Shown here in pieces: positions 8,749-9,644 of a DNA stretch of 64,000 bases. The stretch lies in assembly GCA_001796285.1 (NCBI GenBank), contig MGMD01000001.1, positions 10,143-74,142 of the forward strand. Direction: 5' to 3'. Numbering within the stretch: position 1 is the stretch's first letter; each line of letters begins with the position of its first letter. Made by a program: the position numbers and the translations under genes. This DNA comes from Chlamydiae bacterium RIFCSPLOWO2_12_FULL_45_20. Its GTDB lineage: Bacteria; Chlamydiota; Chlamydiia; Chlamydiales; SM23-39. The notes beneath the pieces are model-generated. The model did no database searches and was not told the DNA's origin. It saw only the letters and a list, made by a program, of their open reading frames with translations.

Positions 8749-9501
8749 ATGCCTCGCTACAAAATAATTCTCAGTTATGACGGGACAGAGTACTGCGGTT
8801 GGCAAGTACAACGCAACGGCATCTCCATCCAAGCTGTGATGCAAAAAGCGCTTCAAACTGTACTCCGCCACCCGGTAGAGCTGACCGGTTCTGGAAGAAC
8901 AGATGCTGGGGTGCATGCAAGAGGTCAAGTAGCCCATTTCGACTCAAACGCCTCTTTCGATACTGCTACCCTCCGATTCCATCTCAACTGCCTGCTCCCA
9001 TCCGATATCCGCGTCAAAAAGATTGAGCCTGCTGAAGGGGGATTCCACGCCCGCTATAGCACCAAGAGAAAAATTTATTATTACTATCTTTTTACACACC
9101 CTGTTATGAATCCTTTTCGCAAGCTCTATAGCTATCACATCAGAGGCCCTTTCAATGAAAAGCTTCTACAAACCGCTTCACAGCACTTTGTGGGCACACA
9201 CAATTTTACCTCTTTTGCCAACGTCAAGCCCAACGCTCCAGAGGATCAGATCCGCACGATCTTTCGTATCGATATTCGAACAAGCGAAGATCTTCTCTTG
9301 TTGGAATTTGAAGGGGATGGATTTTTATATAAAATGGTGCGCAACATCACCGGGACTCTTATCGACATTGCCACGGGGAAAATAGCACTAGAGGATCTTC
9401 CCACAATTTTTGCTGCAAAAGATCGTAGATATGCGGGGAGAACGGCACCGGCTCAGGGACTATTTCTAGAAACTGTTATTTATACCATTTGCGAGAAATA
9501 A
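8749..9501 (+). CDS. truA: tRNA pseudouridine(38-40) synthase
   Basis: 250-aa ORF. YKIILSYDGTEYCGWQVQ and GSGRTDAGVHARGQVAHF (catalytic Asp) are TruA hallmarks. The last 6 codons and the stop lie inside the inverted-repeat element. Confidence 0.93.
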   Translation: MPRYKIILSYDGTEYCGWQVQRNGISIQAVMQKALQTVLRHPVELTGSGRTDAGVHARGQVAHFDSNASFDTATLRFHLNCLLPSDIRVKKIEPAEGGFHARYSTKRKIYYYYLFTHPVMNPFRKLYSYHIRGPFNEKLLQTASQHFVGTHNFTSFANVKPNAPEDQIRTIFRIDIRTSEDLLLLEFEGDGFLYKMVRNITGTLIDIATGKIALEDLPTIFAAKDRRYAGRTAPAQGLFLETVIYTICEK

Positions 9502-9644
9502 ATTCATAAATTAGGGCTGGGTAACATGGCAGATTTGAATGGTCGTTTTGCAGCTCATGTTTTTAAACATGAGCAAGAAAGGATCGTTCAAATCTGCCAT
9601 GTTACCCAGCCCTAATTTATGAATTTATTTCTCGCAAATGGTAT
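9482..9644. mobile_element. MITE-like palindromic element: perfect 58-bp terminal inverted repeats around a 47-bp core
   Basis: 9482..9539 is the exact reverse complement of 9587..9644 (checked base by base). The core holds its own hairpin gctcatgttt/aaacatgagc (9553..9574). No ORF. It sits between the convergent truA and HAD genes. Confidence 0.8.

Follow-up and report, generated by a model that had tools for sequence, protein, structure and literature searches.

The window analysed here is a stretch of 64,000 nt, numbered 1-64,000, which corresponds to positions 10,143-74,142 of contig MGMD01000001.1 in the genome assembly of Chlamydiae bacterium RIFCSPLOWO2_12_FULL_45_20 (hereafter G000; 1.54 Mb, 28 contigs, 45% G+C, 90.6% complete). 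Between truA, encoding tRNA pseudouridine synthase A, and a convergent HAD hydrolase gene lies a 163-bp palindrome (window 9482-9644), whose parts are listed in Table 1 together with those of a second, truncated copy.

The truA-HAD locus and its palindrome

Direct sequence comparison confirmed that the two 58-nt arms of the palindrome are exact reverse complements, as a first-pass annotation of this DNA had stated, and a repeat finder stretches them to 67 nt at 96% (9482-9548 and 9578-9644). The hairpin noted in the 47-bp core was also recovered; it has 9 bp, and compensatory changes maintain it in the homologous elements from five other genomes. Stops occur in all six frames of the element, the first one 6 to 11 codons from either end. 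Because an identical 163-bp copy is present in two independent public assemblies from other samples (ENA ERZ28563803 and JGI 3300002502), the palindrome is not an assembly artifact.

Table 1. Coordinates of the element, its flanking genes and the solo arm in the window
Feature	Position	Strand	Remarks
truA (tRNA pseudouridine synthase A)	8749..9501	+	C-terminal tail probably rewritten by insertion (orthologue comparison)
Left target-site duplication copy (TTA)	9480..9482		Flank pattern of the family
Left arm	9482..9539	+	Outer ~35 nt are the family terminal inverted repeat (ATACCATTTGCGAGAAATAAATTCATAAATTAGGGC)
MITE proper	9483..9643		161 bp, TACC...GGTA
Central 9-bp hairpin in asymmetric core	9553..9574		GCTCATGTT-TTTA-AACATGAGC
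Right arm	9587..9644	+	Element positions 112-127 turned into perfect left-arm complement, window copy only
Right target-site duplication copy (TTA), TAA stop of the HAD gene	9644..9646	-	Sequence and ORF calls
HAD hydrolase gene	9644-10321	-	TAA at complement(9644-9646)
Solo right-arm remnant of second copy	15517..15547	+	Starts with the TAA of ORF 13702-15519
Surviving right target-site duplication (TAA) of the solo arm	15548..15550		...GGTA|TAA|tctt

The deduced C terminus of TruA reads ...GLFLETVIY followed by TICEK*. The first-pass annotation had assigned the last six codons and the TAA of truA to the left arm; the TAA and five full sense codons, T, I, C, E and K, do lie wholly inside it (9484-9501), but the sixth, a Tyr codon (9481-9483), straddles the element boundary. 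The gene ends after five element-encoded codons because every frame entering the arm stops within 11 codons. TruA orthologues from 13 same-genus genomes mostly end at the conserved Tyr, with the pattern ...GLFLxxVxY*, and the convergent truA-HAD order is kept in 13 of the 13 same-genus genomes that have both genes on the fetched locus, where the two gene ends often abut or overlap (overlaps of 4 to 98 nt). If the element and one TTA were removed, truA would read about 17 more codons into the HAD 3' end. At the opposite side, the right arm ends on the stop of the HAD gene, in agreement with the first reading. From the duplications and the orthologue comparison, we infer that the insertion landed on the HAD stop, regenerated it and swapped a dispensable truA tail for TICEK*. 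The suggested search for empty sites yielded no such allele among 24 contigs with an identical HAD gene, and every complete contig has the element.

The window contains just three exact copies of the outer-arm 32-mer TAATTTATGAATTTATTTCTCGCAAATGGTAT, one in each arm and one at 15517-15548, with a chance expectation of none. The third occurrence opens with the TAA (15517-15519) of ORF 13702-15519, just as the first-pass annotation described. Its left junction, catTAAT|TTATG, would fit a deletion from the left TAA+T of a full copy to the internal cTAATt of the right arm, and the deleted full copy had probably sat on the TAA stop of this ORF.

A repeat family with a TNA target and IS630-family relatives

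A BLASTN search of the window element against the whole G000 genome, the copy count for which the first-pass annotation had called, mapped 29 loci on 17 contigs, comprising 15 full-length copies (93-96% identity), one extra copy interrupted by a scaffold gap and 13 partial solo-arm copies. Of the 12 gap-free full copies, 7 share one sequence, a sign of a recent burst. The outer terminus is kept in all 13 partial copies and the inner cut point is different each time, so these are decay products and no separate element. Perfect inversion in the family consensus is confined to the outer ~35 nt; seven mismatches fall in the inner stem (positions 37-52), and the core is asymmetric. An element of 161 bp without coding capacity falls under the ~300-bp limit for a bacterial MITE, and the family has the terminal inverted repeats (~35 nt in the consensus, 58 nt in the window copy), target-site duplications and dispersed near-identical copies of this class. 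The proposal of a non-autonomous mobile element was therefore borne out by its many genome-wide copies, terminal inverted repeats and target-site duplications.

The duplications themselves, which had been proposed as a check, follow the flank rule tX|ATACC...GGTAT|Xa, with X equal on both sides in 12 of 14 G000 copies. A TNA duplication was likewise found in 15 of 20 related MITEs of another chlamydial genome (G242) and in 4 of 5 full-length IS copies of the MAG HK-STAS-VERR_A-3; pooled, the middle base of T-N-A is equal on both flanks in 31 of the 39 elements examined. The simplest reading of this pattern is a 161-bp TACC...GGTA element (window 9483-9643) between duplicated T-N-A, and the span 9482-9644 given earlier is this element plus one duplicated base per side. 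We rejected a model with a TA-only duplication, because it requires an 8-bp non-palindromic target with two variable bases equal by accident. The T and the A of the canonical 2-bp TA duplication are both present, with one extra variable base duplicated. The IS630 family, to which the relatives described below belong, canonically duplicates TA, and a 3-bp TNA is therefore atypical for it, while Tc4 and Tc5 of Caenorhabditis elegans duplicate TNA. A search of the literature turned up nothing relevant on IS630 elements with a TNA target; should the TNA duplication be confirmed for an IS630-type lineage, it would be a small mechanistic variant.

These features also bear on the class of the element, which had been called REP-like as well as MITE-like. 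REP/RAYT systems are recognized by 20-40-bp imperfect palindromes, no target duplication and a linked Y1 (RAYT) transposase. The location of the palindrome at gene ends would suit a REP-like element or merely a local palindromic terminator, and three small Y1_Tnp fragments in G000 would suit movement by a RAYT transposase; both explanations are nevertheless extremely unlikely, because the element is 161 bp long with 35-bp inverted repeats and target-site duplications at 29 dispersed loci, and its ends are common with those of an IS630-family IS, which makes REP-like the wrong class. The Y1 fragments are relics of 31-41 residues, and none adjoins a copy. A local terminator, the outcome foreseen by the first-pass annotation if no further copies existed and truA orthologues already had this end, is contradicted by the many copies. 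The Y1_Tnp fragments (IS200/IS605 or RAYT type) are C-terminal pieces at C16:19856-19948, C28:5-97 and C1:119028-119150, two of them at contig edges.

Related MITEs carry the same terminus, ATACCATT...AAATAA. By scanning 401 genomes of the order with the degenerate terminus ATACCATTYRYSARAAATAA, allowing one mismatch, we found matches in 87 genomes and up to 142 matches per genome, with a reversed control near zero; named hosts include MAGs of Simkaniaceae, Protochlamydia, Parachlamydia, Waddliaceae and Neptunochlamydia. Homologous elements of ~162 bp, with termini and core in common, were detected by BLAST in G034 and G035, which represent two further families of chlamydiae. The same 20-nt terminus also stands on at least three unrelated cores in other chlamydial genomes (loci L192-L201), with lengths of 161-167 bp, which suggests that one IS lineage has given rise to MITEs more than once, and the constancy of length hints at an optimum for the transposase or for the hairpin. 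About one in five of the genomes sampled from the order has the terminus, though a full-text literature search found no description of MITEs or IS630 elements in Chlamydiota; the element class is familiar, and the family itself is ordinary in kind and apparently undescribed for this phylum.

In G242, a 1307-bp IS bounded by the MITE ends (C1:1354418-1355724) contains two ORFs with the Pfam domains HTH_23/HTH_33 and DDE_3, and the transposase proteins match NCBIfam NF033545 (IS630 family) at 152 bits, above the cut-off of 100. Over its first ~145 bp this IS is colinear with the G242 MITE (~95%) and the G000 MITE (~75%), in an alignment that spans the central hairpin and the GAACGATCCTTTCT motif; the MITE therefore corresponds to the left end of the IS fused with its right terminus. 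Five 1138-bp IS copies with the same ends are found in HK-STAS-VERR_A-3. A MITE-like imperfect palindrome lies in the untranslated 5' left end of the 1307-bp IS (C1:1354418-1354590; L049 419-590). It is absent from the 1138-bp IS, where the ORF begins 37 bp from the end. The 1307-bp IS may be either the MITE progenitor or an IS that picked up a MITE as its left end. Taken with the repeat family, these data indicate that the window element is very probably a MITE, a non-coding derivative of an IS630-family IS lineage widespread in environmental Chlamydiales.

The TNA duplications might also point elsewhere, since 3-bp TNA or TWA duplications are typical of IS5-family and PIF/Harbinger-type transposons, and a DUF4096 fragment (IS5-family IS427-type OrfA) adjoins a solo arm on C19. 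A MITE of such a transposon is nonetheless very unlikely: chlamydial IS427-like ISs end GAGCCTATCCCG..., unrelated to the MITE ends, G000 has no DDE_Tnp_4 or DDE_Tnp_1_2 (PF13359, PF13586) genes and its lone DUF4096 fragment is a relic, and in two relatives it is an IS630-family transposase that lies between the exact MITE ends, again with a TNA duplication.

A partner transposase with matching ends, as the first-pass annotation had suggested seeking, is an IS630-family enzyme in these two relatives, but none is intact in G000. The 90.6%-complete G000 assembly has no intact cognate transposase and no HTH_33 domain. Neither there nor in 17 metagenome contigs that match the G000-type arm did we find an IS with the exact G000-type repeat ATACCATTTGCGAGAAATAA; the 17 contigs all derive from the population of G000 itself and encode no transposase. 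With the window's own genome excluded, the exact arm had no match among other genomes' contigs. Since no partner is present in the assembly or the 17 contigs, present-day mobility is unproven, and the copies may have been mobilized in trans by an IS630 transposase that the G000 assembly no longer contains.

Several other transposon remains were considered. G000 contains IS630 (DDE_3) relics, namely, a C-terminal 136-residue piece at the start of C1 (C1:1-411), a duplicate of it at the end of C15 (C15:5255-5407) and a degenerate piece in the window (62034-62126, minus strand) with two TAG stops. The C1 and C15 relics lie at contig edges, where a multicopy IS probably breaks the assembly. The C1 fragment was rejected as the partner on account of its different lineage (24-27% identical to the G242 enzyme) and of its end (ATACCCAAGTAAATTC...), which matches the MITE repeat only partly; full-length relatives of this lineage also end ATACCGTT... 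A search of G000 for termini in inverted orientation at 0.6-3 kb from each other gave a sole candidate (C17:2075/3118), which enclosed the uracil-DNA glycosylase gene ung and no transposase. A pair in G034 (C30:41134/41845) was rejected as a partner IS for enclosing a small unrelated ORF. These inverted solo arms (C30:41134-41845; L020 833-1545), 712 bp apart, surround a 135-residue ORF (MTDSLSFQIQRLQEELDLPP...) and a structured-looking upstream stretch, and could be a MITE-bracketed passenger or chance neighbors. Also rejected was the IS982-like IS on C19, which ends TAACCCAACTTGTCCCC and has inserted right beside a solo arm. The region around it (C19:47606-49180; L001 928-2502) is a transposon graveyard, in which a 124-residue DUF4096 fragment ending at TAA is followed by this intact-looking IS, with a 274-residue DDE_Tnp_1 ORF and a possible 5-bp TAATA duplication; its insertion point coincides exactly with the outer edge of a MITE arm remnant of 27 bp. 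Within the window, positions 61300-62600 hold two or three tandem diverged units of ~750 bp (strings ggatattacaaactctttcag and ccatagatccaatcgaagactttgagg), adjoined by a tRNA-gene-like stretch at ~62505-62590 on the minus strand.

Stem pairing, gene ends and the predicted hairpin

By comparing the window copy with the master copy represented by the seven identical copies, we found seven differences, which are exactly the seven stem mismatch positions. All seven private changes restore Watson-Crick pairs; six are in the right arm and follow the left, and one is in the left arm and follows the right. Elsewhere in the family, copy C10:17797 has two compensatory double changes (15/149 and 50/114), 11 of 15 substitutions in diverged copies keep or restore pairing, and 22 of 56 stem pairs show compensatory changes across six homologous subfamilies. 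The first-pass annotation had taken the perfect identity of the arms as an argument for recent mobility or selection, which the comparison does not support; the master copy has only ~35 perfect bp and an imperfect inner stem, and the seven of seven pairing-restoring private changes contradict the recent-mobility reading. Judged from the copies compared, the perfect 58-nt arms are a private, derived state reached via arm-to-arm conversion. The mosaic, position-by-position pattern fits mismatch correction in a hairpin or cruciform formed by the arms, so that correction in such an extruded structure is the most likely mechanism. The seven changes form an unusually clean arm-conversion footprint in a natural palindrome, and hairpin-templated correction, if true, would be in-genome evidence for palindrome extrusion in vivo.

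The positions of the copies relative to genes were evaluated with crude ORF calls, on which all context statistics rest. Of 25 classifiable loci, 14 lie between convergent genes, compared with 17.6% of gene junctions genome-wide (P about 2e-5). A flanking stop codon is exactly the duplicated TNA at 7 of the 29 loci, against an expected 10.8% among noncoding TNA sites (P about 0.03), and about seven further gene ends have their stop inside an arm, including truA, ORF 13702-15519, ung on C17 and both genes at C5:5320. The ung gene (C17:2327-3097; locus L034) ends ...SCPNL* in a 36-bp solo arm, its last codons and TGA stop being element derived, and it is a second conserved housekeeping gene of this kind besides truA. 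As frames entering either end stop within 6 to 11 codons, an insertion near a 3' end costs a short tail only. The earlier view that the element sits at, and supplies, gene 3' ends was upheld by truA, the HAD stop and the other loci. A target preference for TNA, with TAA and TGA being TNA, combined with purifying selection would be enough to explain the pattern. Rewritten C termini (truA, ung and others) and the stop-codon coincidence affect gene-boundary calls, and annotators of chlamydial MAGs should expect the terminus at gene ends and contig breaks.

RNA folding predicted very stable hairpins for both strands (-126 and -114 kcal/mol), with z below -22 (z = -22.5 for -126 kcal/mol). Within 9482-9644, neither strand has a canonical intrinsic terminator or U-tract, and no consensus promoter was found inside the element. 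No Rfam family scored above threshold; the only matches, below threshold, were to miRNA precursors and represent generic long hairpins. The element could plausibly act as a barrier to transcription or be a substrate of RNase III. More specifically, the element could be a selected structural or regulatory module, acting as a bidirectional transcription barrier, an mRNA 3' stabilizer or an RNase III site between convergent genes, which would be compatible with a MITE origin. The stability of the hairpin on both strands, the strong enrichment between convergent genes and the compensatory changes that hold the stem across six subfamilies and within copies all agree with this idea, as does the report that Correia/NEMIS stem-loops affect neighboring mRNAs via RNase III (PMC2229807). 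However, the lack of a U-tract leaves no canonical intrinsic terminator, no Rfam family reaches threshold, purifying selection against harmful insertions also predicts the 3'-end enrichment, and DNA-level arm conversion equally explains the conserved pairing; we consider a selected module unlikely.

For the preferred reading, a MITE derived from an IS630-family lineage, the following sequence of events is proposed. The ~35-bp terminal inverted repeats would serve as the ends recognized by the transposase, and transposition would duplicate a 3-bp TNA. The window copy would have landed on the TTA/TAA that is the HAD stop, the duplication preserving the stop, and the insertion would have cut off the nonconserved tail of the convergent, probably overlapping truA. 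Selection would then retain copies chiefly at gene 3' ends, above all where two genes converge, and copies would later decay to solo arms by deletions, while homogenization of the arms of one copy against each other would have made the window copy a perfect 58-bp palindrome. In its widest form, which we put forward as a tentative and still rather doubtful extension, an order-wide chlamydial IS630 lineage with a TNA target would have given rise to ~162-bp MITEs that prefer and regenerate stop codons. In compact intracellular genomes these would persist as hairpin insulators where genes converge and often overlap, with arms kept complementary by hairpin-templated mismatch correction.

Comparison with known systems

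The closest parallels are small palindromic elements of other bacteria. RUP of Streptococcus pneumoniae is a MITE proposed to be mobilized by IS630-Spn1 (PMC2229807). Like the chlamydial element, RUP is a small noncoding palindrome whose inverted repeats match an IS630-family IS and which has stops in six frames (PMC2229807); it is dispersed, mostly intergenic and sometimes located in other ISs (PMC2229807), which may be compared with the C19 solo arm of G000 abutting IS fragments. However, RUP has 107 bp and a TA target, whereas the chlamydial element has 161 bp and TNA, the two have no sequence similarity, and the host of the latter is an environmental chlamydia without a resident intact partner. 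The Correia/NEMIS elements of Neisseria resemble it in their size of 100-160 bp, long inverted repeats and long RNA stem-loops (PMC2229807), and their 155-bp form lies almost only between genes and carries stops in every frame (PMC2229807). RNase III processing of co-transcripts has been proposed for them (PMC2229807). They differ in their unrelated sequence and TA duplication. An IHF site is reported in Correia, and RNA processing has been shown for Correia, whereas for the chlamydial element such processing is a prediction.

With the IS630/Tc1/mariner group and the Stowaway MITEs, the family shares autonomous relatives that encode HTH plus DDE_3 transposases matching NF033545, targets that start with T and end with A, and a MITE made of the IS ends minus the gene; the difference lies in the target, a canonical TA dinucleotide in that group but TNA in the chlamydial MITEs and full-length ISs. 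MITECca01, an IS982-derived element of a Cardinium endosymbiont, is likewise a MITE family of an intracellular bacterium with ends common to a resident IS (PMC9769881). It belongs to another IS family, is about 240 bp long, has its parent IS in the same genome and is limited to one strain, in contrast to the chlamydial terminus, which extends across many families.
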